This document shows positions 2,054-62,121 of a stretch of 64,000 bases of DNA, one piece after another. Made by a program: the position numbers and the translations under genes. Every line of letters starts with the position of its first letter. Within the stretch, counting starts at the first letter, position 1. Source of the stretch: an uncultured Hormoscilla sp. (GTDB taxonomy: Bacteria; Cyanobacteriota; Cyanobacteriia; Cyanobacteriales; Desertifilaceae); NCBI GenBank assembly GCA_963921275.4, contig OZ001293.3, forward strand, positions 2,048,001 through 2,112,000. The letters run 5' to 3'. The notes below the pieces were generated by a model. That model did no database searches, had not been told where the DNA came from, and saw only the letters and a program-made list of their open reading frames with translations.

Positions 2054-2438
2054 TAGGTGCTACTGAGGTAAGACCTGCTATCACATGTAGCAATTTTTTA
2101 CCTTATGCACCCTGAATGTTGGCTGAGTCACACCTCTTTGGTGAACTCATATTTATATTCTGGCTCGGTTAGCTCTGTTTTGAGATGAGAGATCTCACTG
2201 GATTTATGTGCGTGTAGTTCGTTATTATCGTGATGCAATTATGACGTAAGTATGATTTCCCTCACAGTCAAGAGTTCGACCTAAGACTGACTTTACGGCT
2301 TCCCAGGCGCGAAGCTTCGTAGTAAGCACGAAGAGTCTCCGCACGAAACTCAACCGGTGCATCTTATTCTTGGCAGAAGGATGAACGAGAAGCGAGAAAA
2401 TATGATAAAATCGAGCAGAGGTAAGAGAGGAGAAAAAC

Positions 2439-3911
2439 ATGACAGAAAAGAAAAAGGAACTGACAACCAGTTTCGGAATTCCGGTGAGTGACAACCAGAA
2501 TTCTCTGACAGCGGGAAGTCAAGGTCCGATCTTGATGCAAGACTTCCAGCTAATTGAGAAACTGGCTCATTTTAACCGCGAACGCATTCCGGAACGAGTA
2601 GTACATGCGAAGGGTGCGGGGGCCCATGGTTACTTTGAACTAACAGCAGATGTCACCCAATGGACAAAGGCAAAGTTCTTAGATAAGGTGGAAAAACGGA
2701 CGCCAGTGTTCCTGCGTTTCTCGACTGTGGGGGGAGAAAAAGGTTCGGCGGATACGGCCCGGGATCCGCGCTGGTTTGCGGTCAAGTTCTACACGGAGGC
2801 AGGAAATTATGATATCGTCGGGAATAATACGCCGACTTTTTTTATTCGCGACCCGCAGAAGTTCCCGGACTTGATTCACAGTCAAAAACGCAATCCTCAA
2901 ACCAATTGCAAGGATCCTAATGCGGTTTGGGACTTCTTTTCTCTCTCTCCAGAATCACTCCATCAGGTTACCATTTTGTATTCAGACCGGGGTACTCCTA
3001 AGTCCTATCGCCACATGAATGGCTATGGTAGCCATACTTTTAAGTGGATTAATGCTGAGGGGAAGGCGGTTTGGGTTAAGTATCATTTTAAGACTGACCA
3101 GTCCATTGCTAACTTTACTCGGGAAGAAGCAACCCAGATGGCAGGAGTTGATGCTGACTACGCTACGCGAGACCTGTTTGAGGCGATCGCCAATCAGAAC
3201 TACCCCAGTTGGACTGTGAAAGTGCAGATCATGCCTTTAGAAGATGCGGCGACTTACCGCTTCGATCCCTTCGACTTGACGAAGGTCTGGCCCCATAAGG
3301 ACTATCCGATGATTGTGATCGGGAACCTGGTGCTCGATCGCAACCCGGAAAATTACTTTGCGGAAGTAGAACAAGCAGCATTTTCTCCCTCTAACGTAGT
3401 GCCGGGAATCAGCTTTTCTCCAGATAAAATGCTGCAAGGGCGTTTGTTTGCCTATCCGGATGCTCATCGTTACCGTCTGGGTGCAAACTATGCTAACCTG
3501 CCAATCAACTGTCCCCATGCGACTAAGGCGATGAACTATCAGCGGGATGGGGCGATGCGCTTTGATGATAATGGCGGTGCTAGTGTTAACTACGAACCGA
3601 ATAGTTTTGGCGGTCCCACGGAATCACCGGAGTATAAAGAACCCGCTTTTGAGGTTTCGGAGATGGCCGATCGGACCGCATTTGAGCGCAGTGATGACGA
3701 CTTTGTCCAGGCGGGGGAACTTTATCGGATCCTGAGTGCAGAGGAGAAAGCGCGTCTGGTGGATAATATTGTCGATAGCATGAAACCTGTAAAGCGAGAG
3801 ATTCAGTTGCGGCAAATTCCCCATTTCTACAAAGCCGATCCAGATTATGGTACTCGTGTAGCAGAGGGTTTGGGTATTGAGATCAAAGAAGTGCTCAAAT
3901 CAATGAATTGA
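2439..3911 (+). CDS. katA: Monofunctional small-subunit heme catalase
   Basis: [15 protein letters not shown] (distal His), VGNN (Asn) and [14 protein letters not shown] (proximal Tyr); 490 aa. Confidence 0.93.
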
Positions 3912-4357: not shown

Positions 4358-4964
4358 GACATCTCCTCCATTGTTAACTTACTTAACTACGTTGCGGTGT
4401 CTCCTGGGAGACACCGCCTCAGGCTCGCATCTTCCGTAGGAGCACGTGTATTTTTTTGTAGCTTGTGGGCTGAGAGCCTTGCCTCGTCATAAATTTCAGC
4501 TTGTATGTTGCACCCCCCTGCTATTATACATGAAATTCAGCAGCTTGAGTTGGAAATTTCAGCAAAAATGAGATGCAGTCGTCAATCTTGAGCAAAAAAT
4601 TGTTTCATTCCGCTTCCTTACTCGCGTTGCTGGGCGTGACAGGACATATGTGCCACCGCTGGTTGGGGAGGCGAGAGGACCTCGGTTGTAAAACTGCTCC
4701 ATTGTTCATGGCCTTAGTTCTATCATGAGGGATATCCTGCCTGGTGGACATGAGGCGTGACAGCTACTCAAACCCTGATTTGGAGTCAGCAACAAAATGC
4801 CTCAAACCCTCATGATTGCGTTCTTGAGAACCCCAACTCCGAACTAGGGAACTCCGAACTGGTGAACGGGTGTAGTCAAAACCCGTTGATAAAAATATTG
4901 ATCCCCCAGCCCTCAGATTTTGACCACGGTGAACTCACGTTGGTGGGCGGTGCTGGATGCCATT

Positions 4965-5205
4965 TTAAATATGATTTGCCCCTAAGCAAATATGATTTGC
5001 TTCTGAGCATATATTATTTGTCCCTGAGCCCTGAGCATATATGATTTACCCCTGAACATATATGATTTTTTTCTGAGAATAATATATGATTTGCCTTTGA
5101 GCATATATGATTTGCCTCTGAGCATATATGATTTGCCCCTGAGCAAATATGATTTGTACATTTTAAATCATATTTGCCCCTGAGCAAATATGATTTGCGC
5201 CTGCA
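4965..5205. repeat. Degenerate tandem repeat, ~21-nt unit GCCCCTGAGCA(A/T)ATATGATTT
   Basis: About 10 imperfect units visible, with no spacers. Confidence 0.85.
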
Positions 5206-5362
5206 AATCTATGTAATGATGCGGAGTTTCCCTGGGATCCCCCGACTAGATGCTAGACTTCTCCAGAAGTGCCTCAACTCCTTCAGTACCCTGAAAAAAG
5301 TTCAATTGATGACCGCGAAACAAATGCCGGACGTGATAGCGAGTTGGTGTTGCGGGCAGTAT

Positions 5363-5551: not shown

Positions 5552-6163
5552 TTCCCCGGTTCTCGTTCTTAGGTTCGTAGTAAGGACTTTAGTCCTTCTG
5601 CGGGTAGGTTGAGCACATTGCCAGTTCGACCCTTACTAGGATGGTCAAACAAATTGGGCAACAAGATATCTAAATAGTAGGACATAATTATTTAAATAAT
5701 TGTCAAATCAATAAGGGTGTGGTCAAAATTCGTTGTTACACGGCTGACGCCGCGCTGCGCGATCGGCCTCGCCGCCCGAACCCTGAAGGGTCCGGCTATA
5801 TGAACAAAGCCCGCCTGCGCGGGCTATATTACACGCATCACCAGATGCACCCATCAACTACTTGTGACCGCACCCAGTCAATAAGGCTAAGGGAGTTCCA
5901 AAAAATAAATTCCCCAATTTTATCGCTGTACCAACTGGTGCATCCAGACTACTGGATAATCTTGGAGGATTATTTACTTGGACTTCCCTATAACCCTTGC
6001 TGTGTGGTAATTTGAAGCTTTCGACTACAAACTACGAACCGCGTAGCGTTGCGAGGTACGAATTATCATGTGCTTAAGCCAGGTTAGGCTGGTAAAACTT
6101 CGATCGTCGAGGGTGAGAAAGCATTGCTCTGGACCGTTGTTCTTGATTTTGGCTGTTTACCCA

Positions 6164-9894: not shown

Positions 9895-9996
9895 CTGGAT
9901 GCATCTTTTGTAATCTAGCCCGCGCAGGCGGGTCTGGAATGTGTAGCCCTACCCTTTAGGGTTCTGGCGGCGGGGTAGCAGCCTTCCTTTATGGAG

Positions 9997-10441: not shown

Positions 10442-11152
10442 CTAATTCAATTCATCGGGGTCTATCCCAAGTTCTTGTAGCCGACTGCGCAACCTTTCAT
10501 ATTTGGCCTCTGCTGCTTCGGCCCGCAGCCTTTCTTGGATCGCTGATTCTGTGGGAGCCGGAACCAACTCCCCCGTTGAAGTCAAAAACCTCAGTTTTTC
10601 TTCTACTATTCCCAAATACAACTCTAGCTGTTCGCTCCACATCCAGCCCCGCTCATTCCGTGCTATTTGCACGTATTCCCTCTCTTGAGAAAGACGAAAT
10701 CCTTGGAACTCCAAGCTATAGGGGTCAAACCAAAAATATTCAGGAGTGGAGAATACATTCTGGTATATTTCTCTCTTGGTAACCCTATCCGTTTCGGCAG
10801 TTGAGTCGGATAGCATTTCTATAATCAAATTTGGATACTTGCCATCTTCTTCCCACACTACCCAACTTGTACGCTCTCTGAACTCCGTGTCCAATACTAC
10901 GAAAAAATCCGGTCCCCGGAACTCCTCGTTCCGGCGATGACTACTACTGTAATATATCGTCAAATTGCCTGCTGCAAAGAAATTGTTCCGTCGCTCTGGC
11001 GGGGCCTCCGGGCGATCGCGCCACCACCACTCCAGGCACAACAGTAACAGGATGATTTGTTTGAGATGGCGATATGTTTCCAAGGGCGGTTCATCACTCA
11101 AAAGTAACTTTTGCCGATATTTTAGTACATCGGGCTTGCTGCTTGCAACCAT
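10442..11152 (-). CDS. Uma2/DUF820 family endonuclease-like protein, copy 1
   Basis: SDEPPLET, GPDFFVV, SWVVWEEDGKYPNLIIEMLS and PEYFWFDP motifs. Confidence 0.9.
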   Translation of the reverse strand: MVASSKPDVLKYRQKLLLSDEPPLETYRHLKQIILLLLCLEWWWRDRPEAPPERRNNFFAAGNLTIYYSSSHRRNEEFRGPDFFVVLDTEFRERTSWVVWEEDGKYPNLIIEMLSDSTAETDRVTKREIYQNVFSTPEYFWFDPYSLEFQGFRLSQEREYVQIARNERGWMWSEQLELYLGIVEEKLRFLTSTGELVPAPTESAIQERLRAEAAEAKYERLRSRLQELGIDPDELN

Positions 11153-11273
11153 AGCTCTATCAACTCCTTACTCCTATCTCTAGTCTAGCAAAAGATTGGC
11201 CCTCCGTAGTCATATTCTCTTCTGGGAGCGCGGACCATTGACCAGGGCATTTCCAACAGGCGGCGATCGCCTC

Positions 11274-12068
11274 CTAATTCAATTCATCAGGGTCTATCCC
11301 AAGTTCTTGTAGCCGACTGCGCAACATTTCTAATTGGGCCTCTGCTGTATCGGCCCGTTGGCATTCTGCATCGGCCCGTTGGCGTTCTGCATCGGCCCGT
11401 TGACGTTCTGCTTCGGCCCGTTGGCGTTCTGCTTCTTTCTGTAGCCTTTCTTGGATCGCTGATTCTGTGGGAGCCGGAACCAACTCCTCCGTTGAAGTCA
11501 AAAACCTCAGTTTTTCTTCTACTATTCCCAAATACAACTCTAGCTGTTCGCTCCACATCCAGCCCCGCTCATTCCGTGCTATTTGCACGTATTCCCTCTC
11601 TTGAGAAAGACGAAATCCTTGGAACTCCAAGCTATAGGGGTCAAACCAAAAATATTCAGGAGTGGAGAATACATTCTGGTATATTTCTCTCTTGGTAACC
11701 CTATCCGTTTCGGCAGTTGAGTCGGATAGCATTTCTATAATCAAATTTGGATACTTGCCATCTTCTTCCCACACTACCCAACTTGTACGCTCTCTGAACT
11801 CCGTGTCCAATACTACGAAAAAATCCGGTCCCCGGAACTCCTCGTTCCGGCGATGACTACTACTGTAATATATCGTCAAATTGCCTGCTGCAAAGAAATT
11901 GTTCCGTCGCTCTGGCGGGGCCTCCGGGCGATCGCGCCACCACCACTCCAGGCACAACAGTAACAGGATGATTTGTTTGAGATGGCGATATGTTTCCAAG
12001 GGCGGTTCATCACTCAAAAGTAACTTTTGCCGATATTTTAGTACATCGGGCTTGCTGCTTGCAACCAT
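11274..12068 (-). CDS. Uma2/DUF820 family protein, copy 2 (chimeric)
   Basis: Core nearly identical to copy 1; AERQRAD coiled-coil tail like copy 3. Confidence 0.9.
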   Translation of the reverse strand: MVASSKPDVLKYRQKLLLSDEPPLETYRHLKQIILLLLCLEWWWRDRPEAPPERRNNFFAAGNLTIYYSSSHRRNEEFRGPDFFVVLDTEFRERTSWVVWEEDGKYPNLIIEMLSDSTAETDRVTKREIYQNVFSTPEYFWFDPYSLEFQGFRLSQEREYVQIARNERGWMWSEQLELYLGIVEEKLRFLTSTEELVPAPTESAIQERLQKEAERQRAEAERQRADAERQRADAECQRADTAEAQLEMLRSRLQELGIDPDELN

Positions 12069-12189
12069 AGCTCTATCAACTCCTTACTCCTATCTCTAGT
12101 CTAGCAAAAGATTGGCCCTCCGTAGTCATATTCTCTCCTGGGAGCGCGGACCATTGACCAGGGCATTTCCAACAGGCGGCGATCGCCTC

Positions 12190-12963
12190 CTAATTCAATT
12201 CATCGGGGTCTATCCCAAGTTCTTGTAGCCGACTGCGCAACATTTTTAATTGGGCCTCTGCTGTATCGGCCCGTTGGCATTCTGCATCGGCCCGTTGGCG
12301 TTCTGCATCGGCCCGTTGGCGTTCTGCTTCTTTCTGTAGCCTTTCTTGGATAGATGATTCTGTCGGACCTGGAACCAACTCCCCCGTTGAAGTCAAAAAC
12401 CTCAGCTTTTCTTCTACTATTCCCAAATACAACTCTAGCTGTTCGCTCCACATCCAGCCCCGCTCATTGCGTGTTATTTCCACGTATTCCCTCTCTTGAG
12501 AAAGGCGTAATCCTTGGAACTCCAAGCTATAGGGGTCAAACCAAAAATATTCCGGCGTAGAGAATACATTTTGGTATATTTCTCTCTTGAGACTCCTATC
12601 CGTTTCCACAGTCGAGTCGGATAGCATTTCTATAATCAAATTTGGATACTTGCCATCTTCTTCCCACACTACCCAACTTGCACGTTCTTTGTACTCCGTG
12701 TCCAATACTACAAAAAAATCTGGTCCCCGAAAGTGCTCGTTCCGGCGCTGGCGACTACTGTAATATATCGTCAAATTTCCGGCGGCATAAAAATTGTTGC
12801 GTCGCTCTGGCGGCGCCTTCGGGCGCGAGCGCCACCACCACTTCAGGCACCACAGTAACAGCATGATTTGATTGAGATGGCGATCTGTTTCCAATGGCGG
12901 TTCATCACTCAACAGTAACTTTTGCCGATATTCTAGCACATCGGGCTTGCTACTTGCAACCAT
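12190..12963 (-). CDS. Uma2/DUF820 family protein, copy 3
   Basis: Same motifs with a more diverged core. Confidence 0.9.
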   Translation of the reverse strand: MVASSKPDVLEYRQKLLLSDEPPLETDRHLNQIMLLLWCLKWWWRSRPKAPPERRNNFYAAGNLTIYYSSRQRRNEHFRGPDFFVVLDTEYKERASWVVWEEDGKYPNLIIEMLSDSTVETDRSLKREIYQNVFSTPEYFWFDPYSLEFQGLRLSQEREYVEITRNERGWMWSEQLELYLGIVEEKLRFLTSTGELVPGPTESSIQERLQKEAERQRADAERQRADAECQRADTAEAQLKMLRSRLQELGIDPDELN

Positions 12964-19117: not shown

Positions 19118-19637
19118 TCCTCTCGCTCCCGCTGTAATAGCTGACCATTAACAGCTTGTTTACCACAGCCGCACTTTCTTCACTAGCAAGACTTTTTGTC
19201 CTAGGGGAGCTGGTGTGGCTGTAATTTATGCGGCATACTTTGGCTAGAGCGTCGGTCCATTAATAATACTTGACAAATTAAAACATCTGTGAATCAATGA
19301 AAAATCAACATATTCTCGCCTCCCCCCCATGTCCTCCCTCTCCCTCTCATGATTTTACCCAAAATTTGTTGTACTGGTCCTCTCGCTCCCGCTGTAATAG
19401 CTGACCATTAACAGCTTGTTTACCACAGCCGCACTTTCTTCACTAGCAAGACTTTTTGTCCTAGGGGAGCTGGTGTGGCTGTAATTTATGCGGCATACTT
19501 TGGCTAGAGCGTCGGTCCATTAATAATACTTGACAAATTAAAACATCTGTGAATCAACGAAAAATCAACATATTCTCGCCTCCCCCCCATGTCCTCCCTC
19601 TCCCCCTCATGATTTTACCCAAAATTTGTTGTACTGG
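19118..19637. repeat. 260-bp tandem duplication downstream of psbU
   Basis: 19118-19377 and 19378-19637 are almost identical. Confidence 0.92.
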
Positions 19638-19650: not shown

Positions 19651-19859
19651 CCCTGTCAAGGTGACGGGAAACAATGGCCCGCCCAGCCGATCGCGCACGC
19701 AGCCATGTATGGTATTTTTTCTTACCTGCTCAGGAGTAAAAATTTTTCTGTTCTTCATAGCCTTTAGGCCTTGGAATAGCTTGCTCTGCGCTATCTACAA
19801 TTGTTGGTGTCTTTAGTTTTTCGCCACCTTTGAGCGGTTGTGTAAGGCATGATCTCGTT

Positions 19860-21960
19860 GGACGACAAGGAAGAATAACGTCAGACAGCTGTGCTCATTC
19901 GGGAAAGCTCCTATTTCATCAGACTTCCTGGGAAACTTTCCAAGCGTTCGAGTAAGTTAGAGGTTCTCATCCTACAATGTAACTCAGGCGCCAATTGGTA
20001 GAAAGTCAAGGTCAACTCAAGAGCTCTCTGGAACCTTTGCACTGCCTTATATTCCAGAACTTCCCACTTCAGGAAAAACGCTGCCAAGCGCTGTTGTGCT
20101 TCCTGTGAGCGAGGGCGCAGCGTAAAGAGCATAAGCATCATTTTGAAGAGGATAACGACGCTGTTGTTTGGCTTGGGAGTGAGTTAGCTGTTGTCCCATC
20201 TCATCATGTTCGGGGAGTTGTTGATAGCTCAGATCGTCTTGGAGCCGTCCCACAAGGTGGGTGATGCATCGCTGTTGCTTGGCCTTGGGCAGATGTTTGG
20301 TCATGGCAGCAGGCAAACCTAAAGTCCCATCACTCACAACTACTTCAACAATTTCTGCTTGCAGACCCCATGCCATTAAGTTTTATATGAAGTTTTCCCA
20401 GGCCAGGGTGTCAAGACAGTTGGGCAATTTCGTAATGTATAAGTTGGTAGCTGCCATCTGGCCAGACAGCCATCGCCGCCAAAATTACACGCTCTTGAGC
20501 TTGCCCCATCTGGCGGAGATGTCCTGCAGGGTCTACTTTGGATGGGGTCGAGCCGGGAATCGCTTCCCGACCCTCCCTTGAGGAACCGGACTTGCGATTT
20601 TCACCGCATCCGGCTACTGGGTACTAGGCCCTTTTCATAGGTAGACTTAATAGGAATTACTTCCGTTAGCCCTTGCCGCCTGTCTTTTCTTCCCTTTCCT
20701 GGTTTAGCGAGTGGTTGTTCTGATAACCGTTAGTATCACCATTTTCAAGTCAGTTTTACCAGTTATCCATACCTTATCCTCCACTTGCGTTTCGGATTAG
20801 TTCCGTGGCTTTTTAGGATTACTCATTCCAGCAGCTTCCTAGTATCACCGACCCACGTCAGCGCTGGCTACCCAGCATCATCTACATTACTGTAGATGTT
20901 ATCCCAGGAATTACCCCGGGCATTCGCTTCTTGGGCCATCCCTCCCCCCGTGGCTTGCGCTTAACATCTAACTTGTCCTGATGGACAGCACACGAGAGGT
21001 TACTTCGTTCCCTAACAACATTTCGCGATACCTTTAGGTCCACACTATACCCCGGGAGCTATTTGAGTACTATATTAGCCAGAGTCTAAAACTAATACTA
21101 GCTACCATTTCCTTTTTAGGCCAGCGCATATAGTCTTATTTCGCTGGTTCCTTATAACGAGGCTTGCACATGTTTGCCTGCTCTAACCTTGGATATCTTT
21201 CCTAGCGGCGTCACCGGCTTAGGCTGCCAGTTATCCTACATTTGAGTCCTCGCTTAGCACCACGATGATGTCGCTTCGTAGCACCGAGGACCGGTGTCAC
21301 CCCCGTACCTGGGGGGAGGGGAATTTAACCCCCATGCGGTCAGAGTTCCCGGCTAATGAAACCGGGCTAGCGTTCCGTGTTTGACCACGTTAGGCTAGAA
21401 CGAATCGCACAAACTCTTCAAGGGTATATTGGATGTCCACCCAGACCCCATCTACAATCAAGATGGGAGGCGTCTTCTCAATCACCGATTGACGATGTTT
21501 ATCCATTTGCTGTTGAGCTTGTAAAGTAATAGGATTGATGGCACTCACAGATAGGACACTGCCCAGAAGAGGATAAAGTGCCTCTTGCAAGTCCCTGAAG
21601 GATAAACCCATCACATACAGACATAACCCCAAGTGAGCGTTGTTAAGACCGCGTTGATAGCCTTGCAAGATTTGCCATTTACGATCTGCATTACCCCATC
21701 TGAGTTTGGGCGTAGTTTATCAATTCTGCCATACTCGGTGTCAAGTACCCGAGAAAAATAACCTGAACGTCTTGGCTGAGGTCCAATGAAAGCTGCTGCG
21801 CTCAGCTTCCAATTCTTCGGCTTTTTCAATAATCACTTTAGTTATGGCCACAACTTCACCTTTAAGGGTTGCTTCCAGTTCCGCACAAAATTGCTGGTTG
21901 AAAACTTTGGGATTGGATGGGTACTATTTGCTTTTCACCCTCGGCTATTTTCATGGCAAG
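19860..21960 (-). mobile_element. Decayed IS256/Mutator-family transposase interrupted by an ORF-less group II intron
   Basis: Fragments SGYFSRVLDTEYGRI, GLSFRDLQEAL, LIVDGVW and VVSDGTLGLPAA..P.AKQQRCITH, MRTSNLLER, with multiple stops and frameshifts. Confidence 0.75.
20540..21410 (-). mobile_element. ORF-less group II intron, copy A (871 bp)
   Basis: 5' GTGCGATTCGTT; domain V AGCCGGATGCGGTGAAAATCGCAAGTCCGGTTC; domain VI hairpin; no RT ORF. Removing it restores the transposase frame (EEF|KVDPAGH). Confidence 0.92.
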
Positions 21961-28004: not shown

Positions 28005-28100
28005 GGGGTTTCAAACCCCGACCGAGAGGTTTGAAACCCCAACCGAGAGGTTTAAAACCCCAACCGAGAGGTTTAAAACCCCGACCGAGAGGTTTAAAAA
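28005..28100. repeat. 21-bp tandem repeat GGTTT(A/G/C)AAACCCC(G/A)ACCGAGA, ~4.5 copies
   Basis: Directly visible; no spacers. Confidence 0.9.
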
Positions 28101-28501
28101 CCTCAACTCAGAACGCCGAAATCCGAACTCCTTCCCTCACGTAGGGCACCGGTTAGATTGGGTGCGCTCACTTGTAGTTGATAGCCGGGTGCATCTGGTG
28201 ATGCATGTAATATAGCCCGCCTGCGCAGGCTTTGGTTGTAGAGTTAGGTTCGGATAAGCCTTGCCTGGTGGAGCGATCGCCTGCTGCGGGGGTAAGGGAT
28301 CTCAGAAATGGTGGATAGAACACAGCTAATCTTGACTGCAACGAAGCTACTATCTCTGACATATACTTCTTCAGCAAGAGAGTTAGAGGAGATGATGGAT
28401 GCGCAGTTAACTAATTTGCCATCCGGTGAGGACTGGAAGTTTTAAGATTGAGGATAAGAAGGGCGATCGCACTCCGAAATATCCTATAATATAAATATCA
28501 G

Positions 28502-42182: not shown

Positions 42183-44183
42183 ATGACTTATAGAGATGTT
42201 TTGCTCCCCTTAAACCTCAAAGGCGATCGCAATATCTGCGTCGCTGTCCTTGACGGTCCTGTCGATCTCGCTCACCCCTGTTTCCAAGGAGCCGATCTGA
42301 CCGTGCTTCCCACCTTGGCTCCTACGGCTGCCCGTAGTGACGGCTTTATGTCCGCGCACGGCACCCACGTTGCCAGTATTATTTTCGGTCAACCGGAAAC
42401 TAGCGTTCGAGGTATCGCTCCCCAGTGTCGGGGGCTCATCGTCCCCATATTTTCCGACGATCGCAGGAGGACAACCCAGCTCGATCTAGCTCGGGGTATC
42501 GAGCGGGCTGCCATTGCCGGAGCCCACGTTATCAACATCAGCGGCGGCGAACTCACCGATTTTGGCGAGGCGGACGGGTGGCTCGAAAATGCTGTTAGCC
42601 TGTGTCGGCAGAAAAATATTTTGATCGTAGCTGCGGCAGGGAACAACGGCTGCGACTGCCTGCACGTTCCCGCCACCTTACCCGCCGTATTGGCCGTAGG
42701 CGCAATGGACGAGCGCGGGCATCCCTTGGACTTTAGCAACTGGGGATCTTCCTACGAGCAGCAGGGCATTCTCGCTCCCGGTGAAAATATTTTGGGGGCC
42801 AAGCTCGGTGGCGGCACAGAACGCCTCAGCGGCACCAGCTTTGCAACCCCAATTGTTTCCGGCGTCGCCGCCTTACTGCTGAGCAAGCAAGTTCGCCGGG
42901 GCGAAACCCCCGATCCCCAAAAGGTGCGCCAAGTGTTGTTGCAGAGTGCTTTGCCCTGCGACCCCGAGGTGCCCGAAGCGACCCGCCGCTGTCTGGCCGG
43001 GAAATTGAACATCTCTGGAGCTTTCACTTTACTGACAGGAGGAAATATGTCTGAAGAAGTCACGAACGCTGCCGTTCCCAGCGTAGAAGCGTCGGGGAAC
43101 TGTGGATGCGGCGGTGGACTCGTCACTGCCGATACCACTACCGAGTCCGGTCTGGTGCCGGAGCGGTCGGTGTTCGCTGCGACGAGTCCCGCTGCTATCG
43201 AAGCTGCCGGCAGCCTCGACCCCCAGCCCGTTCCATCGCCCACCCAACCCCCCGTACAAATGCCAGTCCAATTCCCTACACAAACACTCTCTATGACAAC
43301 CAATCAAGTTACACCCAGCCAAGCCCCCAGCGAACTTGCTAACAGTCAGTTCGTCTATGTCCTAGGAACTTTGGGCTACGACTTCGGCACCGAAGCTCGC
43401 CGCGACACCTTCAAGCAACTCATGCCGCCCTTTGAGTTTGCTGGTAATATGGTTCCGGCCAACCCCTACGATGCCCGTCAGATGGTGGACTACTTGGCTG
43501 GCAATATCTCAGAAGCGCGATCGCTGATCTGGACCCTTAACATAGAACTGACCCCGGTCTATGCCATTGACCCAACCGGTCCTTTTGCTTCGGAAACCTA
43601 CCACGCCCTTCAGGAACTGCTCGAAGGTCAAATCCAAGCGGAAGATAATGAAGAATACGTTGAGCGTGTCAGCATTCCCGGTATCTTGACCGGGCGATCG
43701 GTTAAGCTCTACTCCGGTCAAGTTATCCCGGTTGTTGAACCCCAAAGCACCCGCGGTCTCTACGGTTGGAAGGTTAATAACTTGGTAAATGCTGCCATGG
43801 AGGCAGTTCGCGCTGAAGGAGGGGATGCAGGGGAAGAGCGCATTCGCCAAACCTTGGATGGCTTTCTCAACCGCATCTACTACGATCTGCGCAACTTGGC
43901 AACCACTTCCCAAGACCGGGCCCTCAACTTTGCCGTTACCAACGCCTTCCAAGCTGCCCAAACCTTTAGCCAAGCGGTGGCGGTGGGCATGGAACTCGAC
44001 AGCGTTACTGTGGAGAAAAGTCCCTTCTGTCGCCTAGATAGCGACTGCTGGGATGTAAAGTTAAAGTTCTTCGACCCAGAAAACAACCGTCGTGCCAAGA
44101 AGATTTACCGATTTACCATTGATGTGAGCGATCTGGTTCCAGTTACTATGGGAGAAGTTCGTTCTTGGTCTTCTCCTTACTAA
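42183..44183 (+). CDS. patA: Cyanobactin N-terminal subtilisin protease (PatA/TruA family)
   Basis: Catalytic triad in VAVLDGPVD, HGTHVAS and SGTSFATP; C-terminal DUF with GTLGYDFGTEARRD. Confidence 0.95.
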   Translation: MTYRDVLLPLNLKGDRNICVAVLDGPVDLAHPCFQGADLTVLPTLAPTAARSDGFMSAHGTHVASIIFGQPETSVRGIAPQCRGLIVPIFSDDRRRTTQLDLARGIERAAIAGAHVINISGGELTDFGEADGWLENAVSLCRQKNILIVAAAGNNGCDCLHVPATLPAVLAVGAMDERGHPLDFSNWGSSYEQQGILAPGENILGAKLGGGTERLSGTSFATPIVSGVAALLLSKQVRRGETPDPQKVRQVLLQSALPCDPEVPEATRRCLAGKLNISGAFTLLTGGNMSEEVTNAAVPSVEASGNCGCGGGLVTADTTTESGLVPERSVFAATSPAAIEAAGSLDPQPVPSPTQPPVQMPVQFPTQTLSMTTNQVTPSQAPSELANSQFVYVLGTLGYDFGTEARRDTFKQLMPPFEFAGNMVPANPYDARQMVDYLAGNISEARSLIWTLNIELTPVYAIDPTGPFASETYHALQELLEGQIQAEDNEEYVERVSIPGILTGRSVKLYSGQVIPVVEPQSTRGLYGWKVNNLVNAAMEAVRAEGGDAGEERIRQTLDGFLNRIYYDLRNLATTSQDRALNFAVTNAFQAAQTFSQAVAVGMELDSVTVEKSPFCRLDSDCWDVKLKFFDPENNRRAKKIYRFTIDVSDLVPVTMGEVRSWSSPY

Positions 44184-44276
44184 GAAACAGCCAAATATTA
44201 GTGTAAGTAAAACAAACTGTGCTTTCACTAAAAAAGTTACTCAACTTATTTACTATATTGTGGAGAATCCCGAACT

Positions 44277-44516
44277 ATGCGACTTCCGCTACTGTCTGCC
44301 CCTGTAAAACGCCCTCATTTCATCCAGCCTGCTCTATGTGTAGATGTTGAGAATGGCCGTGTTAAAGATTTGCTACATATTCGCATAGATCTTATGCACG
44401 GTGCTAACTATAATGACCCGCCAGCCTTTGCCAACCGCAGTTTCAACCAAGTGATGCACTCAAGTGCCAGCAATGGCTGGGGCGGGTTTGCCAGTAGTAT
44501 GGGACGCTTATTATGA
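44277..44516 (+). CDS. patB: Cyanobactin PatB family protein
   Basis: MRLPLLSAPVKRPHFIQP..DLMHGANYNDP. Confidence 0.9.
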   Translation: MRLPLLSAPVKRPHFIQPALCVDVENGRVKDLLHIRIDLMHGANYNDPPAFANRSFNQVMHSSASNGWGGFASSMGRLL

Positions 44517-46091
44517 CTCAAGAAACGGAAACTCTATGGCAAATAGGTAAACCTGGTAAAAGAGGTCAGGAGTTTGTGCAAGCAGGTGGCTGGCAAGCTG
44601 AATTTACTTATGTTGTTGGGTCTGATGAGGATGGGGTCGAGCCGGGAATCGCTTCCCGACCCTCCCTTGAGGAACCGGACTTGCGATTTTCACCGCATCC
44701 GGCTACTGGGTACTAGGCCCTTTTCATAGGTAGACTTAATAGGAATTACTTCCGTTAGCCCTTGCCGCCTGTCTTTTCTTCCCTTTCCTGGTTTAGCGAG
44801 TGGTTGTTCTGATAACCGTTAGTATCACCATTTTCAAGTCAGTTTTACCAGTTATCCATACCTTATCCTCCACTTGCGTTTCGGATTAGTTCCGTGGCTT
44901 TTTAGGATTACTCATTCCAGCAGCTTCCTAGTATCACCGACCCACGTCAGCGCTGGCTACCCAGCATCATCTACATTACTGTAGATGTTATCCCAGGAAT
45001 TACCCCGGGCATTCGCTTCTTGGGCCATCCCTCCCCCCGTGGCTTGCGCTTAACATCTAACTTGTCCTGATGGACAGCACACGAGAGGTTACTTCGTTCC
45101 CTAACAACATTTCGCGATACCTTTAGGTCCACACTATACCCCGGGAGCTATTTGAGTACTATATTAGCCAGAGTCTAAAACTAATACTAGCTACCATTTC
45201 CTTTTTAGGCCAGCGCATATAGCCTTATTTCGCTGGTTCCTTATAACGAGGCTTGCACATGTTTGCCTGCTCTAACCTTGGATATCTTTCCTAGCGGCGT
45301 CACCGGCTTAGGCTGCCAGTTATCCTACATTTGAGTCCTCGCTTAGCACCACGATGATGTCGCTTCGTAGCACCGAGGACCGGTGTCACCCCCGTACCTG
45401 GGGGGAGGGGAATTTAACCCCCATGCGGTCAGAGTTCCCGGCTAATGAAACCGGGCTAGCGTTCCGTGTTTGACCACGTTAGGCTAGAACGAATCGCACA
45501 GACTCAATAAACCTACCCCATATGCCGCCATTGCTGTTGGTTCCAGGTCGCAAGACGAAGCAAAAGCGATACGGGAAGCAGATTTTTGCTACAGATAAAC
45601 TAAACATCCAATTTACCCTAGCCCAGGATTATAATGCCGAGGAACTCACGCTTTTTTACGACTTTTTGGGCTCTGAAACTGACACCCTGTTTGTAGATGG
45701 CGAGCCAGTGACGAAACTCGTAGGAGTCGGTAAAGACAAGCTGAAGCAAACTCAGATTACTTTACCCGCTCTGAGCGCAGGGGAACATACCCTGACCATC
45801 ACCACCTCTGGTGGGAAGGGAGATGGCAGACATTGGATTGACTACCTGAAGCTCGAGGGGATTGTCGCTCCTCAGCAACCAGAAACATCAAAGGAGGAAA
45901 CTATGGTTAATAAAAAGCCTACCGCAAAATCTCAAACGGCTGAGAAGAAAAAGTCTTACGTCATGACTTCTACGACGGGTATGCAAGACTAATCTTATTG
46001 GTCGCTCCACGTCCGCGATCGCTACGGGGAAGAGGCGAAAAAATATGAACGCGATCCCAAACCTTTCCGACGAGGGCGGATTTGGGCTTAA
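44513..46091 (+). pseudogene. patC: Cyanobactin PatC family protein interrupted by an antisense group II intron and a nonsense codon
   Basis: Removing 44629-45499 gives ..VVGSDE-DSINLPHMPP.. in frame. TAA at 45990 precedes SYWSLHV...PFRRGRIWA*, the PatC signature. Confidence 0.85.
44629..45499 (-). mobile_element. ORF-less group II intron, copy B (871 bp)
   Basis: Essentially identical to 20540-21410 (one substitution noticed), with the same GTGCG start and domains V/VI. Confidence 0.92.
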
Positions 46092-46210
46092 CTCTAAGGC
46101 TACCTCTTTTTAGTGATTTTGTATAAACGTACATCCTCGCCCGATGACGAACGAAAGATTGCTTCCTTTGTCAAAACTTACTTAACTTATTAGTCACAAA
46201 CCTTCGCTTT

Positions 46211-49200
46211 ATGCAAGCAACCACGCTCCAAATTAAGCCCCACTTTCACGTTGAGATAATTGAGCCAAAGCAAGTGTATCTTCTCGGCGAACAGGGCAAC
46301 CACGCTCTCACCGGGCAGCTCTACTGCCAAATTCTGCCTTTCTTAAACGGCGAATACACCCTAGAACAAATTGTTGAAAAGCTCGACGGGCAAGTTCCGC
46401 AGGAATATATCGACTTCGTACTCAATCGTCTGGCGGACAAAGGCTATATAACTGAGGTGGCTCCAGAACTATCCCTGGAAGTGGCAGCATTTTGGAGCGA
46501 ACTGGGAATTGCTCCTTCTGTGGTGGCAGAAGGGCTAAAGCAGCCAGTGGTGTTGGCAAGGGCGGGCAAGGGCATTAGTGACTGGGTTTTGGCTACGCTC
46601 GCGGCAGCTCTGGAGGAAGCTGGCATTCATGTGTCAGATCCAAAGGCAGGGGATTCTACTGCCCAGCTTAAGGTCGTGTTGACCGATGACTATTTACAGC
46701 CGGAACTTGCAGCGATCGACAAGCAGGCGTTAGAGCGCCAACAACCCTGGCTGCTGGTTAAGCCTGTGGGCAGTATCCTCTGGTTGGGACCGGTGTTCGT
46801 TCCTGGGGAAACCGGATGTTGGCACTGTCTTGTCCATCGATTGCGAGGCAACCGCGAAGTTGAAGCATCGGTATTGCAACAAAAACGAGCGCTGCAGGAG
46901 CGCAACGGTCAACATGGGAATGGTAGAGTGGGTTGTTTGCCCACAGCACGGGCAACCCTACCTTCTACCCTACAAACAGGGTTAAAGTGGGCTGCCACCG
47001 AGATTGCTAAGTGGACGGTCAAACGGTACGTCAACGCCAAAGCACCGGGAAAAGCTCGTTTTCCCACTCTAGATGGCAAGATATTTACATTCAACCAGAC
47101 GATTCTGGAGTTGAAAGCTCATCCTCTGAGCCGACGGCCGCAATGTCCGACCTGTGGAGATCGAGAAATTCTACAACGGCGTGGTTTTGAACCTCTGAGA
47201 CTAGAGTCGCGCCCCAAACACTTCACCTCCGATGGCGGTCATCGCGCCATGACCCCAGAACAAACGGTGCAGAAATACCAACACCTAATCGGGCCGATAA
47301 CTGGGGTGGTGACAGAACTGGTGCGAGTTTCTGACCCTGCCAATCCCTTGGTGCATAGCTACCGGGCGGGGCATAGCTTTGGTAGTGCTATGTCTCTGCG
47401 GGGGTTACGGAATACCCTACGCTACAAGAGTTCTGGTAAAGGCAAGACCGATAGCCAATCTCGGGCGAGTGGGCTTTGTGAGGCGATCGAGCGCTATTCG
47501 GGCATTTTTCAGGGAGACGAACCCCGCAAATGGGCAACTTTGGCTGAATTAGGAGACGTGGCGATTCATCCAGAACAATGTTTGCACTTTAGCAACAGGC
47601 AGTATGAAAACCGGGATGCGCTCAACGCTCGGCAGCAGCCTATCGGTGGATTCCCAATCGGTTTGATGCCAGTCAATCCATAGACTGGACGCCCGTATGG
47701 TCGCTGACGGAGCAGAAGCACAAATACGTGCCCACTGCTATCTGTTACTATAACTAACTCAAGTTGCGACCTATAAAAATTGGATACAAAAAGCTATGAT
47801 AAAGAGAATTATTTTCAACTCTAATCCCTTAGATGTAACAGCATGAATTGACTTGGGAAACAAATTGGTGATTCGACTAAAACAGGTTTCAACTTGTTTT
47901 CTTGTTACTTTTTGTATATATTCAAAACAAGAAGATTCTTTTCTTTTTGAGTTCTTTTTTCGCAAAGGTTTTAACATTATACTTGACGACTCTTTTAGTA
48001 AATCCTCTAATTGATAATCATTATAAGCTTTATCTCCATAAACTATTGAATTTGATGGTAAGTCAAAGCCAAAAGATTGCAAAACTTTAACATCATTATA
48101 ACTACCAGGATCTAGATAAAATTCTATTGGCTTTCCATTTTTGTTTACCAACATATGAACTCTTAATCCATAAAAATAACGTTTTTTACTGGCAATATAC
48201 CCTCGATATTCTTCCTTGTTATAAATTTGGCATCTATCAATCCTAATATTATCACATACTGGCACCGGGAAACTATCAAGAATATATTCTTGACCCGGAT
48301 TGAGCTCTTTAAATGTTTGAGCTATAACTTGGAAGAAAAACATCCAAATTGGTTCCTCAATATTGTGTAATCGACGATTGAACCTACTTTTACTTAACAG
48401 ATTTTTTATATACTTGTGTTGGACCATAAATTGACAAGAGCGATCGTGGTGTCCTCCGAAAAAATATGCAGCAACTAATCCGACTGTCATCACTTCGGCA
48501 TTGTTCATTTTTACTTGTGGATCTTCTTTTATATTTAACGCTTTTAGTAGCTCGTCACAAAGAACAAAAATTGTTGTAATCATATCTTCCATCATCTACA
48601 TCCCCCAGCAATTAACTATTATTTTAGTACATTATAACCTATAAACAGCCAACCCGCCGTCTAGCACAAAAAAAATATAATTTTGTATCAAAAGCTACGA
48701 AATATCCCAAATATCTGTAAAGTCTAAGTGGGTAATTCATATTTTTTTTAATAGGTCGCAACTTAGGTTATAACTACCCGCTGCCTCCGGCAGATCGCTT
48801 CTGTAAGGCTGATTCCAACGGAAACGCAGCAGGGAACTCCCTGGAAGAGGCAATTTTGCAAGGGTTTATGGAACTGGTGGAGCGCGATAGCGTAGCCCTG
48901 TGGTGGTATAACTGCCTGCGCCGTCCGGAAGTGGACTTGAGCAGTTTTGAGGAGCCATATTTTCTCCAGTTACAGCAGTTCTACCGCACCAAAAATCGCA
49001 AGATGTGGGTGCTGGATTTGACGGCTGACTTAGGGATTCCCGCCTTTGCAGGTTTATCCCGGCGCACGGTGGGTAGCTCGGAGCGGGTCTCAATCGGTTT
49101 TGGAGCGCACCTAGATCCTCAAATTGCCATCCTCCGGGCTCTAACTGAGGTCAGTCAAGTTGGGCTAGAGCTTGATAAAGTCCCTGACGAGAAACTTGAT

Positions 49201-49557
49201 AGGGAGTCAAAGGACTGGATGTTGGAGGTGACTTTAGAGACTCATCCCTGTTTGGCTCCCGATCCCTCCCAGCCTCGGAAAACTGCCGACGATTACCCGA
49301 AGCGCTGGAGCGATGACATTTATAGAGATGTCATGGATTGTGTGGAGATGGCCAAAGTTGCCGGACTAGAAACCTTAGTGCTAGACCAGACGCGATCGGA
49401 CATCGGCTTGAACGTTGTCAAGGTAATTATACCGGGAATGCGAACGTTTTGGTCGCGGTTTGGTTTGGGGCGACTCTACGATGTCCCCGTGAAGCTTGGT
49501 TGGCTGAAGGAGCCTCTAGCTGAAGCACAGATGAACTCTACGAACATCCCATTTTAA
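46211..49557 (+). pseudogene. patD: Cyanobactin heterocyclase (PatD/TruD; RRE-E1-YcaO), frameshifted and IS-interrupted
   Basis: TGCWHCL..RL, RRPQCPTC, SSGKGKT..EAIERYS, SNGNAAGN and ELVERD; C-terminus NSTNIPF. Frameshift near 47630 and an IS at 47757-48768. Confidence 0.92.
47757..48768 (-). mobile_element. IS982-family insertion sequence with an intact 274-aa transposase (47771-48595)
   Basis: TIRs ACTCAAGTTGCGACCTAT/ATAGGTCGCAACTTAGGT; 8-bp TSD TATAACTA (47749-47756, 48769-48776); motifs SRFNRRLH, ILDSFPVPVC, YFYGLRVH and YGDKAY. Confidence 0.92.
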
Positions 49558-49697
49558 GAATTTTCAAGTTTGGGGGCAACAGGCTTCCCTACGTGCCGGA
49601 TGTTGCCCCAGTAGGCTTCTTCTCAAATGAAGAAGGGGAATGACCCACCCGAACGGGTCAATAAAGCAAAAAAAGACAACCAATGAGGTTTTTTTCA

Positions 49698-49943
49698 ATG
49701 GACAAGAAAAACATTCTGCCCCAACAAGGCCAACCCGTCGTCCGCTTGACTGCTGGTAAACTCCCCAGCCACTTGGCCGAACTCTCTGAAGAAGCTCTCG
49801 GCGATGCTGGTGTTGGTGCATCTTCCAGCAGTTGTATCTGCGCCTATGATGGTGTTGATGCATCTTCCAGCAGTTGTATCTGCGCCTATGATGGTGTTGA
49901 TGCATCTTCCAGCAGTTGTATCTGCGCCTACGATGCTGAGTAA
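49698..49943 (+). CDS. patE: Cyanobactin precursor peptide with three SSSCIC cores
   Basis: Leader MDKKNILPQQGQPVVR..LAELSEEAL, then GVGAS/GVDAS-SSSCIC-AYD three times. Confidence 0.95.
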   Translation: MDKKNILPQQGQPVVRLTAGKLPSHLAELSEEALGDAGVGASSSSCICAYDGVDASSSSCICAYDGVDASSSSCICAYDAE

Positions 49944-50193
49944 GCGTAAGGATATATGGCTAATACAAAGTCCGCCTCAAAAGATTAAAAGCCAATCCCA
50001 AAAGGGATGCAGCAGATCTGGGTAGTTAACCTACATAAGCCGGATTTGGTATTAGATAGCTATAGAAGACGAGGTTAAAGATAGCCAAGTCGCTGAAACG
50101 TTCTTTTGAGTTTTGTGGGTGCAGGCTGTTCTCCTCTACCCTCGTCTTCTTTTATTTCAGTTGTTAAATCCTTACTTACTAAGATTCAAGATT

Positions 50194-51150
50194 ATGAACC
50201 TAACTTCAATACTTAAACATAATCGTCTCGCAGACCGCCGTCTTCAGTTTATGCGTGCCCATCAAGATGCTTTTGATGTGGAGGCAGCTTTCCCTCTGCC
50301 TATCTTTGAAGAGGCAATGCTTGAGATAGAGGGCGCTTGTGGATTTGAATGCTCTTGCAAAGTTGAAGCTGGCCAACTGCTAGCAGGGCGTTTTGAGATT
50401 TGTAATGATGTGGTAAAACCTTGGCCGGGATCCCTAACCCATGCAGTTAAGCTATTGGATCGGATTGAAAATCGGTTGGGCGTCCGCCTTAATCGTGACC
50501 TGTTCGAGCAGTTTGTAGCAGTACATCTTGGCTCTGGCAAAATCGATACTAATAGTATCGGCATTCACTTGGGTTCAAAGCAGGAAGATAACAGTATAAT
50601 AATATATATCTATCTCAATTACGATCGAGATCCTGAAGAATTGGTAAGAACAGCGATCGCTCTCGATGGGGGTTACTACTCAGATGAATTGAGACAGGTT
50701 CTAATGAGAGATACCATGCTCATCGGCTTTAAACTTTTTTTTGATGGTCGCAGTCATGTGGAGCTATGTCCTTGTGCTTCAGCAAAGCCTGGAAAATTGG
50801 GAAACAGAGGGAAGTATCTCATACCCTACATCCAAAAGCACTTTTCAGCAAAGGTGAATTACCTGTTTAGAGTTTCATCTATGGTGATGACAGGCTTTTC
50901 TAAAGCCTGTGTAAAACCAGTATACTGGTTTTACTTCGCCAACATCAAAGACATCTTAAAATATGTTTCATTTAATAGCTTAGGAGATCGGATATATAAT
51001 TTTTGTCAGAGTCAAAGTTGCATTACATTGTCTGCTGTAGCAGTTGCAGAGCAAGAGTTAGAGAAGAATAGGTTAGAAAATTTTTGTTTTTACTACAATC
51101 AACGTGACGAATGCCAACCGCATCCAAGTCCAGATTGGGACTTTTCTTGA
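50194..51150 (+). CDS. patF: Cyanobactin F-family prenyltransferase (LynF/TruF/PatF), copy 1
   Basis: RLQFMRAHQDAFDVE..PLPIFEE, ECSCKVE..L.AGRF; ATG at 50194 chosen over the upstream TTG. Confidence 0.88.
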   Translation: MNLTSILKHNRLADRRLQFMRAHQDAFDVEAAFPLPIFEEAMLEIEGACGFECSCKVEAGQLLAGRFEICNDVVKPWPGSLTHAVKLLDRIENRLGVRLNRDLFEQFVAVHLGSGKIDTNSIGIHLGSKQEDNSIIIYIYLNYDRDPEELVRTAIALDGGYYSDELRQVLMRDTMLIGFKLFFDGRSHVELCPCASAKPGKLGNRGKYLIPYIQKHFSAKVNYLFRVSSMVMTGFSKACVKPVYWFYFANIKDILKYVSFNSLGDRIYNFCQSQSCITLSAVAVAEQELEKNRLENFCFYYNQRDECQPHPSPDWDFS

Positions 51151-51251
51151 AAACAAGATTCGGTAATTATATATTAATTATCTATTGCCATGATTGCTCA
51201 TCCCTTTGCAGTTTCCCTCAACCCCGATATCCAAGTTCTCGGAAACTGAAA

Positions 51252-52303
51252 ATGCAATTGTATGAGCCGGTATTTTCAGATAAATTTGTAAATCACCTTA
51301 AGATTACATCTCTAACTTCTATGTTTCAACATAATCGTCTCAAAGACCGCCGTCTCCAGTTTCTGCGTGCCCATCAAGATGCTTTCGATGTAGAGCCAAC
51401 TTTTATTCTTTCGCTCTTTGAAGAAGCAGTATTGGGAATAGAAGGGAATTGTAGTGTCGAACCCTTTTGTAATGTTGAAAAAAATCGGTTGTTTGCAGCA
51501 GACTTTCATGTTTCTAATGAAGGACATACATGGCCAAGATCTTTGACTGATGCTGTAAAGTTCTTGGATCGAGTTGAAACTAAAGTAGGCGTTAAACTCA
51601 ATCGCGATTTGCTCGATCGGTTTGTGGCGGTACACATTGACTCCCATAAAATAATAAACAACACGATTGGAATCGACCTAAGACAGAGAAACGAGGATTC
51701 TTGCATCAAGGTATTTATGCACCTTGATTATGAAGAAGAGGCTGGAGAATTAGTGAGGACAGCGCTCGCACTTGATGGAGGCAGCTATTCGTCTGAATTA
51801 CTACAGGTATTACTTAAAAGCACTATTGTCATTGGGTTAATATTTTCCTGAATGGCTACAGTGATGTAGAGCTGTGGCCAGCTTGTGTGGGAGAGCAATA
51901 TGAAGGTCGTAAATTGAATCGAGGCAGGTATTTGAAAGATTATGTTCAGAAATTCTTTTCTACTAAAGTCAATTCTCTGTTAAGAGAATCGGCTGTATTG
52001 GCAGTCATTTTTTCTAAAGCGAAGAAGGCAGAGCCAATTCTAGCATTTCATTATGAAGATATTAAAGACATACGAAAGTATTTCTCATTCAACAGTTTAA
52101 GCGATAGAATTTACAGCTTTTTTCAGACTCAAGATTGCATCAATGGTCCTGGTGTGAATGTGACGGAGTTGGAATTAGAAAAAGATCGATTGGAAAATTT
52201 TAGTTTGTTTTATAATAAACGCGATAACTGTCAGCCTATGCCTTTTCTTCAAATGCCGATTGATAATCAACGTTTCGTTAGGCTTATGCTTCAAGTGAAT
52301 TAA
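51252..52303 (+). pseudogene. Cyanobactin F-family prenyltransferase, copy 2, frameshifted
   Basis: RLQFLRAHQDAFDVEP..IGIDLR..SCIKVFMH; the frame breaks near 51845 and continues as the 51887-52303 ORF (YFSFNSL.DRIY..ELEKDRLENF). Confidence 0.85.
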
Positions 52304-52434
52304 ATGAATAAAACTTTGTTATAACATCCTCTCAAGTCTTCTTAACGTCGAATTATGTGCTATTCTGAAAGCTTATCAGATAGCTACTACTATCAAAGTA
52401 CTCACCTAATTATCGCTTCCCATTATCCATAACC

Positions 52435-61792: not shown

Positions 61793-62116
61793 AAACCAAG
61801 GACAAACCTGTTGGGTTTCTGGACGAAACCCAACGCAAGCGCTCTTACTACAAACCAAGGACAAACCTGTTGGGTTTCTGGACGAAACCCAACGCAAGCG
61901 CTAAAGCGCTTACTACAAACCAAGGACAAACCTGTTGGGTTTCTGGACGAAACCCAATGCAAGCGCTAAAGCGCTTACTGCAAACCAAGGACAAACCTGT
62001 TGAGTTTCTGGACGAAACCCAACGCAAGGGCTAAAGCGCTTACTACAAACCAAGGACAAACCTGTTGAGTTTCTGGACGAAACCCAACGCAAGGGCTAAA
62101 GCGCTTACTACAAACC
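61793..62116. repeat. Tandem array of five ~59-65-bp palindromic units
   Basis: AAACCAAGGACAAACCTGTTGGGTTTCTGGACGAAACCCAACGCAAGCGCTAAAGCGCTTACTAC repeated head to tail; internal hairpin GTTGGGTTTC/GAAACCCAAC. Confidence 0.9.
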
Positions 62117-62121
62117 TATGG

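Follow-up and report, generated by a model that had tools for sequence, protein, structure and literature searches.

Near-identical group II introns without a protein gene in a Hormoscilla genome, and the natural covariation of their guide and target sequences

Group II introns that lack an open reading frame (ORF) can be mobilised in trans, as has been shown for Thermosynechococcus elongatus with its 'driver' intron-encoded proteins (IEPs), and the available part of that report presents this single thermophile as the best-studied case of proliferation (PMC2882425). In the excerpted text of other papers, ORF-less introns are termed rare in bacteria (PMC4424553), chloroplast-like (CL-type) introns are numerous in cyanobacteria (PMC8919778) and a twintron is known from Trichodesmium (PMC4649490); a literature search returned no paper combining Hormoscilla and group II intron. 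Here we analysed a stretch of 64,000 nucleotides (nt) from an uncultured Hormoscilla sp. (assembly GCA_963921275.4, contig OZ001293.3, positions 2,048,001 to 2,112,000 of the forward strand; hereafter the window, with positions counted from its first letter), which holds two almost identical copies of an 871-nt element. This element is a ribozyme-only group II intron and resembles the ORF-less introns of T. elongatus, a kind already described in cyanobacteria; the T. elongatus precedent to which the initial annotation of this DNA had appealed is a real one, and like TeI3 of that organism (Mohr et al. 2010, PMC2882425, available part) the window family is cyanobacterial, of the IIB type and without an IEP. 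In our assessment, the element is likely to be a non-autonomous, parasitic IIB-type group II intron that has spread by reverse splicing guided by two exon-binding sequences (EBS1 and EBS2), with an IEP provided in trans.

The intron copies and their insertion sites

The copies and the one position at which they differ are as follows.

20540-21410, minus strand: copy A of the ORF-less group II intron, 871 nt, 5' GUGCG ... CGACCCCAUCC 3'
44629-45499, minus strand: copy B of the ORF-less group II intron, 871 nt, identical to copy A at 870/871 positions
21134 (45223 in copy B), minus strand: intron position 277, the sole base at which the copies differ, A in copy A and G in copy B

The description of these loci as two near-identical, 871-bp ribozyme-only introns holds, given this identity, a longest ORF of only 53 amino acids (aa) and a score of 44.4 bits for both copies against the Rfam model of domains V and VI (RF00029, gathering score 40). 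The same model has a third match in the window, to a different intron, at 58607-58683. The similarity between the A locus and the B locus ends precisely at the intron termini. Position 277 is G in copy B and in all seven other aligned introns, so that copy A carries the derived base there, within the otherwise invariant loop motif AAUAAGGCU. At the 5' boundary, both copies and all nine aligned relatives begin with GUGCG, in keeping with the GUGYG consensus. A tblastn search with the window IEP found no IEP remnant in nine full-length ORF-less introns (the window element and eight relatives), the sole similarity being a stretch that overlaps the domain V region. In contrast, the TeI3 introns keep N- and C-terminal remnants of the ORF around one shared deletion in domain IVb, according to the available part of the source (PMC2882425). 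Canonical IEP-bearing introns, such as the one at 58607-61004 of the window, share with the element the six-domain ribozyme, the GUGCG start, the domain V/VI motifs and EBS1/EBS2, whereas the element has no ORF in domain IV and measures 871 nt against 2398 nt. Hence, it can provide neither a reverse transcriptase nor a maturase by itself. In domain IV of copy A (20742-20770, minus strand), GGAGGA is followed after 6 nt by AUG GAU AAC UGG UAA, a string with a faint resemblance to the IEP's ribosome-binding site and start (..AUG AAU GAA UGG..); other ORF-less families do not conserve it, and tblastn gives it no support.

The domains of copy A were placed as follows.

21004-21404, minus strand: domain I, consensus structure of nine introns
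20944-20999, minus strand: domain II, consensus structure
20850-20937, minus strand: domain III, consensus structure
20622-20844, minus strand: domain IV, no ORF
20585-20614 (44674-44703 in copy B), minus strand: domain V, with AGC triad, 2-nt bulge and GAAA loop (RF00029)
20544-20579, minus strand: domain VI, from the Rfam alignment, helix 40 with five covarying pairs, and inspection

Relatives of the intron were collected by a scan of contigs with a degenerate domain V pattern, which gave at least 73 loci (here numbered with the prefix L; all counts are lower bounds). The RNAalifold consensus of nine full-length introns, which are 62-99.9% identical, has the six-domain layout and comprises 204 pairs, with compensatory changes in 83 of them. 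Standard pairs occupy 97.6% of the cells, compared to 88.7% after column shuffling (0/500 shuffles reach the observed value) and 36-49% when the partners are slid, and the covariation score is 0.364 against 0.184 in the shuffles. A helix predicted between columns 578-580 and 1121-1123 shows no variation and is doubtful. A candidate branch-point A, bulged by inspection, lies at 20548, separated by 8 nt from the 3' end, and this spacing of eight bases is always found in the relatives too. The architecture is of the IIB type, and EBS2 (intron 257-261) lies 5' of EBS1 (324-329), the arrangement of domain Id in the IIB/chloroplast-like lineage. Among the curated Rfam models for domains I-IV, none was matched above its gathering score, the best being RF01999 (group-II-D1D4-2), which scored 22 bits (E = 0.043) where its gathering score is 36.

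Each copy lies within a recognisable host gene.

19816-21954, minus strand: host of copy A, an IS256/Mutator-family transposase pseudogene (Pfam PF00872; tblastn of P0044, P0045 and P0160)
44513-46088, plus strand: host of copy B, a patC/tenC/truC-like cyanobactin gene, with the intron antisense within codon 39

As the initial annotation had it, the host genes are unrelated, and the orientation of the intron differs as well, being sense in A and antisense in B. The transposase gene contains several stops and frameshifts, and the intron sits between its codons 185 and 186: in alignments with the full-length proteins P0044, P0045 and P0160 (427-428 aa), residue 185 (F) abuts copy A upstream and residue 186 (K) abuts it downstream. 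For the PatC-family proteins P0002, P0005, P0006 and P0008, residues 1-39 align before copy B and residue 40 onward after it. Besides the insertion of intron B, the patC-like gene has a second lesion, an in-frame stop at 45990-45992 at a position that is Y in the homologs. Since copy B is antisense to this gene, it cannot be removed from its mRNA by splicing and is a disrupting insertion there rather than an intron of the patC-like gene. An antisense copy in a biosynthetic gene, and relatives in Hormoscilla assemblies rather than in a thermophile, set the window family apart from TeI3 as described in the available part of the source (PMC2882425).

The same alignments run on without a break across both introns, with no host bases gained or lost at either insertion, and the reported absence of a target-site duplication at sites A and B is thereby confirmed; the intron copies also have no terminal inverted repeats. 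Both host frames reopen only upon the removal of 871 nt. We considered an 869-nt intron ending in AU, since the end of the Rfam model (...CCCCAU) falls two bases short, and rejected it: only 871 nt restores both frames, the conserved F185 of the transposase is compatible only with GUGCG...CC boundaries, and the homologs are contiguous across exactly 871 nt. The intron, with its boundary set by the host-protein alignments, ends in ...CCCCAUCC, that is, in CC and not in the AY described as canonical for the 3' boundary in the excerpted text of Zimmerly and Semper 2015 (PMC4424553). The 3' ends of the relatives read AUCC, AGCC, GACC, AACC, GUCC or UAAC. The CC end is a further difference from TeI3, as far as the available part of that source describes it (PMC2882425). 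Non-standard termini in an ORF-less intron are known from C.te.I1 of Clostridium tetani, which, in the same excerpted text of PMC4424553, is a single copy in a genome without an IEP gene and splices upstream of GUGYG; the window element, in contrast, is multi-copy, has a canonical 5' end and occurs with IEP genes present.

Downstream of the intron, both copies have AGACCC at positions +6 to +11 of the 3' exon (20529-20534 and 44618-44623), and this hexamer is absent from the 3' exons of nine relatives. With two sites only, the sharing could be due to chance or to a contact with a helper protein.

Guide sequences and target pairing

The guides and their intron-binding sequences (IBS1 and IBS2) in the 5' exons are as follows.

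21082-21087 (45171-45176 in copy B), minus strand: EBS1, AGACUC, intron 324-329, in the 13-nt loop of the hairpin 21073-21097
21150-21154 (45239-45243 in copy B), minus strand: EBS2, UAAGG, intron 257-261, single-stranded
21411-21416, minus strand: IBS1 of site A, GAGUUU, six pairs with EBS1 including one G-U
21419-21423, minus strand: IBS2 of site A, CCUUG, exon -13 to -9, 5/5 pairs including one G-U
45500-45505, minus strand: IBS1 of site B, GAGUCU, six Watson-Crick pairs
45508-45512, minus strand: IBS2 of site B, GUUUA, 4/5 pairs

The initial annotation had proposed that a domain I hairpin (TATTAG...CTAATA) presents AGACUC in its loop as EBS1, and that the 5' exons ending in GAGTTT (A) and GAGTCT (B) both pair with this loop; the pairing is indeed 6/6 at each site, with the one G-U at A. 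Domain I was aligned for 14 ORF-less copies, each at a different site and most of them from Hormoscilla assemblies, and every six-column window was scored, blind to the proposal, for pairing with the final six bases of the exon. The top window coincided with the proposed EBS1 columns, with 90% of the cells paired; the runner-up reached 56%, and 0/200 permutations of the exons reached the top value. With the columns fixed, 76/84 cells pair between EBS1 and IBS1, compared to a permuted mean of 37.0 (sd 5.5), and 0/10000 permutations reach this count. Over the 14 sites there are 11 different EBS1 hexamers, each of which pairs with the 5' exon of its own intron, and 5 or 6 of the 6 positions are paired at 13/14 sites. 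The EBS1 proposed earlier is thereby confirmed.

The identification of EBS2 is an addition to the earlier account. It is the variable stretch immediately 5' of a conserved CCAGCG hairpin, and 57/70 of its cells pair with exon positions -13 to -9, compared to a permuted mean of 30.5 (sd 4.05), with 0/10000 permutations reaching the observed count. As the EBS2 columns had been picked on the same data, the test was redone with the best column chosen for each permutation, and the observed fraction (0.814) still exceeded the permuted maximum (0.657; 0/300 reach it). The 15-nt loop of the CCAGCG hairpin (AAUAAG) was rejected as an EBS2 candidate, both because families with different targets, like the IEP-bearing introns, conserve its motif, AAUAAGGCU, and because the blind scan instead puts EBS2 just 5' of that hairpin. 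In the ORF-less intron of L072, the standard EBS2 register gives 1/5 pairs; by inspection, a shift of one base (UAUCU at -14 to -10) would pair 5/5.

The guides are also where closely related introns differ. L053 stands closest to the window intron among the matches listed (blastn identity 91% across the full length, 92% over the aligned columns), and between the two the EBS positions differ at 11/11, compared to 59/855 elsewhere (Fisher p = 4.5e-13). A concentration of change in the guide sequences is likewise seen among the T. elongatus families, and TeI3 shares with the window family the existence of several families, diverged EBS sequences and good EBS/IBS pairing with the flanks, according to the available part of the source (PMC2882425).

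In summary, the covariation of EBS1 and EBS2 with the targets, the exact boundaries and the absence of a target duplication together form a signature of reverse splicing and not of DNA transposition. Spread at the DNA level, by transposase-mediated movement, recombination or segmental duplication, was weighed because an IS element harbours copy A and transposases and repeats abound in the region. We hold it to be very improbable, as the IS element is single in the window, the similarity of the loci stops exactly at the intron ends, both insertions are exact and lack inverted repeats and target duplications, and EBS1 and EBS2 pair with the flanking sequence of 14 sites. Miniature inverted-repeat transposable elements (MITEs) and retroelements of the type of short interspersed nuclear elements (SINEs) offer a functional analogy only, in that a short protein-less element uses the machinery of an autonomous relative; the window element differs from them in targeting by ribozyme RNA-DNA pairing and in having neither inverted repeats nor a target duplication.

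Under the preferred reading of reverse splicing, the intron RNA would fold into the six-domain ribozyme and be bound by a reverse transcriptase/maturase from another intron in the genome. The excised lariat would then reverse-splice into a DNA strand with a 6-nt IBS1 directly 5' of the insertion point and an IBS2 of roughly 5 nt located two bases upstream of IBS1, with EBS1 (AGACUC) and EBS2 (UAAGG) of domain I reading these targets, and the inserted RNA would be copied into DNA. Both window copies may have arisen in this way not long ago, copy A entering the dead IS256-type transposase gene in the sense orientation and copy B the bottom strand of the patC-like gene, which it interrupted.

Relatives, helper proteins and mobility

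Three metagenome-assembled genomes of Hormoscilla account for at least 22 of the loci: SP12CHS1 (16), GUM202 (5) and GM7CHS1pb (1). Other ORF-less families are 62-81% identical to the window intron, and no copy identical to it was found among the matches listed. Outside Hormoscilla, only L038 gives a domain I match among the loci listed, a weak one of 23 bits, and a distant-mode search of the plasmid collection gave no match. Sequence resembling an IEP occurs in 38 of the 73 loci listed and in only two of the 22 Hormoscilla loci listed: L072, where a separate adjacent intron has an intact IEP of 598 aa, and L021, where there is a fragment. Hence, the protein-less form dominates among the Hormoscilla loci listed, and, here among the matches listed, ORF-less copies outnumber ORF-containing ones as they do in the available account of TeI3 (PMC2882425).

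At least 11 SP12CHS1 loci share one common 3' end, and many of the contigs begin or end inside the intron. The ORF-less introns fragment the assemblies, and their copy numbers are underestimated. That contigs of a related assembly so often break inside these introns also raises the question of an assembly artefact, in which one repeat has been placed twice in the window; this we consider extremely improbable, given that the two copies lie in unique, interpretable host genes with exact junctions and differ at one base.

Local clustering was seen at L064, with three or more copies of ORF-less introns within 7 kb. On a GUM202 contig, at L068 (1778-3576), an inner ORF-less intron (2091-3015) is nested antisense in the EBS1 hairpin of an outer one, and its IBS1 and IBS2 are supplied by the complement of that hairpin (5/6 and 5/5 pairs). 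The insertion into IS elements and into other introns, as twintrons, is a further feature in common with TeI3 in the available part of its description (PMC2882425). L072 and the inner L068 intron are 99.8% identical at two further sites in another assembly.

The window contains a single source of reverse transcriptase.

58607-61004, minus strand: IEP-containing group II intron, 2398 nt

Its IEP (58613-60385) has RVT_N, RVT_1, maturase and HNH domains and is best matched by chain C of PDB 6ME0 (E = 8.8e-87), which we take to be the T. elongatus TeI4h protein. An in-frame TAA (59156-59158) replaces a W of the intact L072 homolog, and the EBS1-like loop of this intron fails to pair with its own 5' exon, whereas that of the L072 homolog pairs 6/6 with its own exon by inspection of the alignment. 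The intron at 58607-61004 is thus probably a decaying copy. It was also rejected as a recent parent of the ORF-less introns, since blastn shows only two short matches with 74-77% identity.

Other possible helpers were found by a protein search, which returned 12 IEP clusters presumed to lie on the chromosome of the window. In three of them the IEP is full-length (P0165, 591 aa; P0185, 596 aa; P0196, 588 aa), with YADD and RGWxNY motifs, a complete C-terminus and a Pfam HNH domain in each; the remaining 9/12 are truncated (388-558 aa). The full-length paralogs are probably on the same chromosome as the window introns, and, judging from these sequences, intact helper proteins are probably available in the genome.

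The two kinds of ribozyme are homologous, but their relationship is a distant one. A profile of ORF-less domain I aligns end to end (positions 1-409) with the IEP-bearing intron of the window (E = 2e-25), at a score of 85.7 bits. In an unrooted domain I tree, from which L040 was left out owing to its poor alignment, a branch 0.62 substitutions per site long lies between the two IEP-bearing introns and the full set of 14 ORF-less ones. In T. elongatus, by contrast, the TeI3 and TeI4 ribozymes are very similar, according to the available part of the source (PMC2882425).

Several observations weigh against the reading of a mobile intron guided by EBS1 and EBS2 and served in trans. With nhmmer, domain I of the two IEP-bearing introns reaches only 85.7 and 71.5 bits, compared to 251-438 for a complete ORF-less domain I, and because their ribozymes are so distant, it is assumed that these IEPs recognise the ORF-less introns. 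The window's sole IEP gene is interrupted by its stop codon, and the placement of the paralogs on the same chromosome is presumed. Only two copies of the exact window intron were seen among the matches listed, and the changed base of copy A sits at an otherwise invariant loop position. The intron ends in CC instead of the canonical AY. As for the pairing, L015 pairs at just 2/6 IBS1 positions and IBS2 of site B at 4/5, and the 3' exons of A and B start with different bases, which would preclude an EBS3-IBS3 pair at both: the starting base is A/U at the window sites, C/U for L053 versus the outer L068 intron, and A/U for L072 versus the inner L068 intron. Finally, the splicing of the intron, its use of the CC end and its mobility are predictions from sequence comparison.

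The identity of the copies at 870/871 positions, together with the heavy decay of the transposase around copy A, suggests a recent movement of the intron, though the near-identity of A and B could also come from gene conversion. If it does, or if it dates from a last burst, the family may have been mobile once and may now be dead in this genome. The stop codon in the window IEP, the truncation of nine of the twelve IEP clusters, the substitution of copy A at an invariant loop base and the decay of surrounding genes (patC, patD, the patF-like gene and the transposase) are all consistent with such relics. Nevertheless, three full-length IEP paralogs exist, the 870/871 identity is hard to square with great age given the decay of the host transposase, and the 99.8% identity of L072 and the inner L068 intron at two sites elsewhere indicates that recent bursts recur in the group, so that we judge a dead family to be unlikely. 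The initial annotation had spoken of an active non-autonomous retroelement family spreading by reverse splicing: the pairing and boundary signature supports the spread by reverse splicing, whereas 'active' and 'in trans' go beyond it. From the comparisons above we infer the splicing competence of the intron, the supply of protein in trans, the recency of the insertions and the active mobility of the family, and the window intron would accordingly belong with those mobilised in trans.

Genomic surroundings and what the intron family may mean

The host of copy B is part of a cyanobactin cluster (42183-56427, plus strand) that looks eroded. Its other genes are listed here.

42183-44183, plus strand: patA-like gene
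46211-47683 and 48856-49557, plus strand: patD-like YcaO gene, split by a DDE transposase gene (47771-48595, minus strand)
49683-49943, plus strand: precursor gene (DUF5837) with three repeated cassettes
50113-51150, plus strand: PatF-like gene (DUF5838), whole
51111-51851 and 51887-52303, plus strand: second PatF-like gene (DUF5838), split
52435-56427, plus strand: patG-like gene

Tandem arrays are found at 19118-19637 (2 x 260 nt, adjoining the transposase pseudogene), 10450-12623 (3 x about 900 nt), 61793-62158 (65-nt units), and 4961-5212 and 28007-28111 (both of 21-nt units). An Rfam match to CRISPR-DR28 (36.6 bits, 5803-5826) was rejected, as it is a lone GC-rich palindrome and not a CRISPR array; the palindrome recurs as dispersed inverted repeats at 9909-9975 and 28187-28243.

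For the annotation of such genomes, these introns are gene-less elements that break assemblies and can, unnoticed, disrupt biosynthetic genes encoded on the other strand. For the study of retargeting, relatives that are 62-92% identical carry different guides and thus provide a natural set of EBS/IBS pairs, from which the two guide sequences can be read directly by natural covariation. The window family is, in addition, a test case for how far the specificity of IEPs can relax. A bolder reading, which is possible but which we regard as doubtful, is that the introns lacking an ORF make up an old, separate lineage that has shed all remains of its protein gene and diversified to at least 11 target specificities, moved by the IEPs of a distant lineage (0.62 substitutions per site away in domain I) and actively breaking natural-product gene clusters. 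If this were true, Hormoscilla-like cyanobacteria would offer a natural example among bacteria of a single protein machinery that serves many introns of seemingly unrelated kind, and their natural-product clusters would be actively broken by ORF-less introns, as with the antisense insertion in the patC-like gene.

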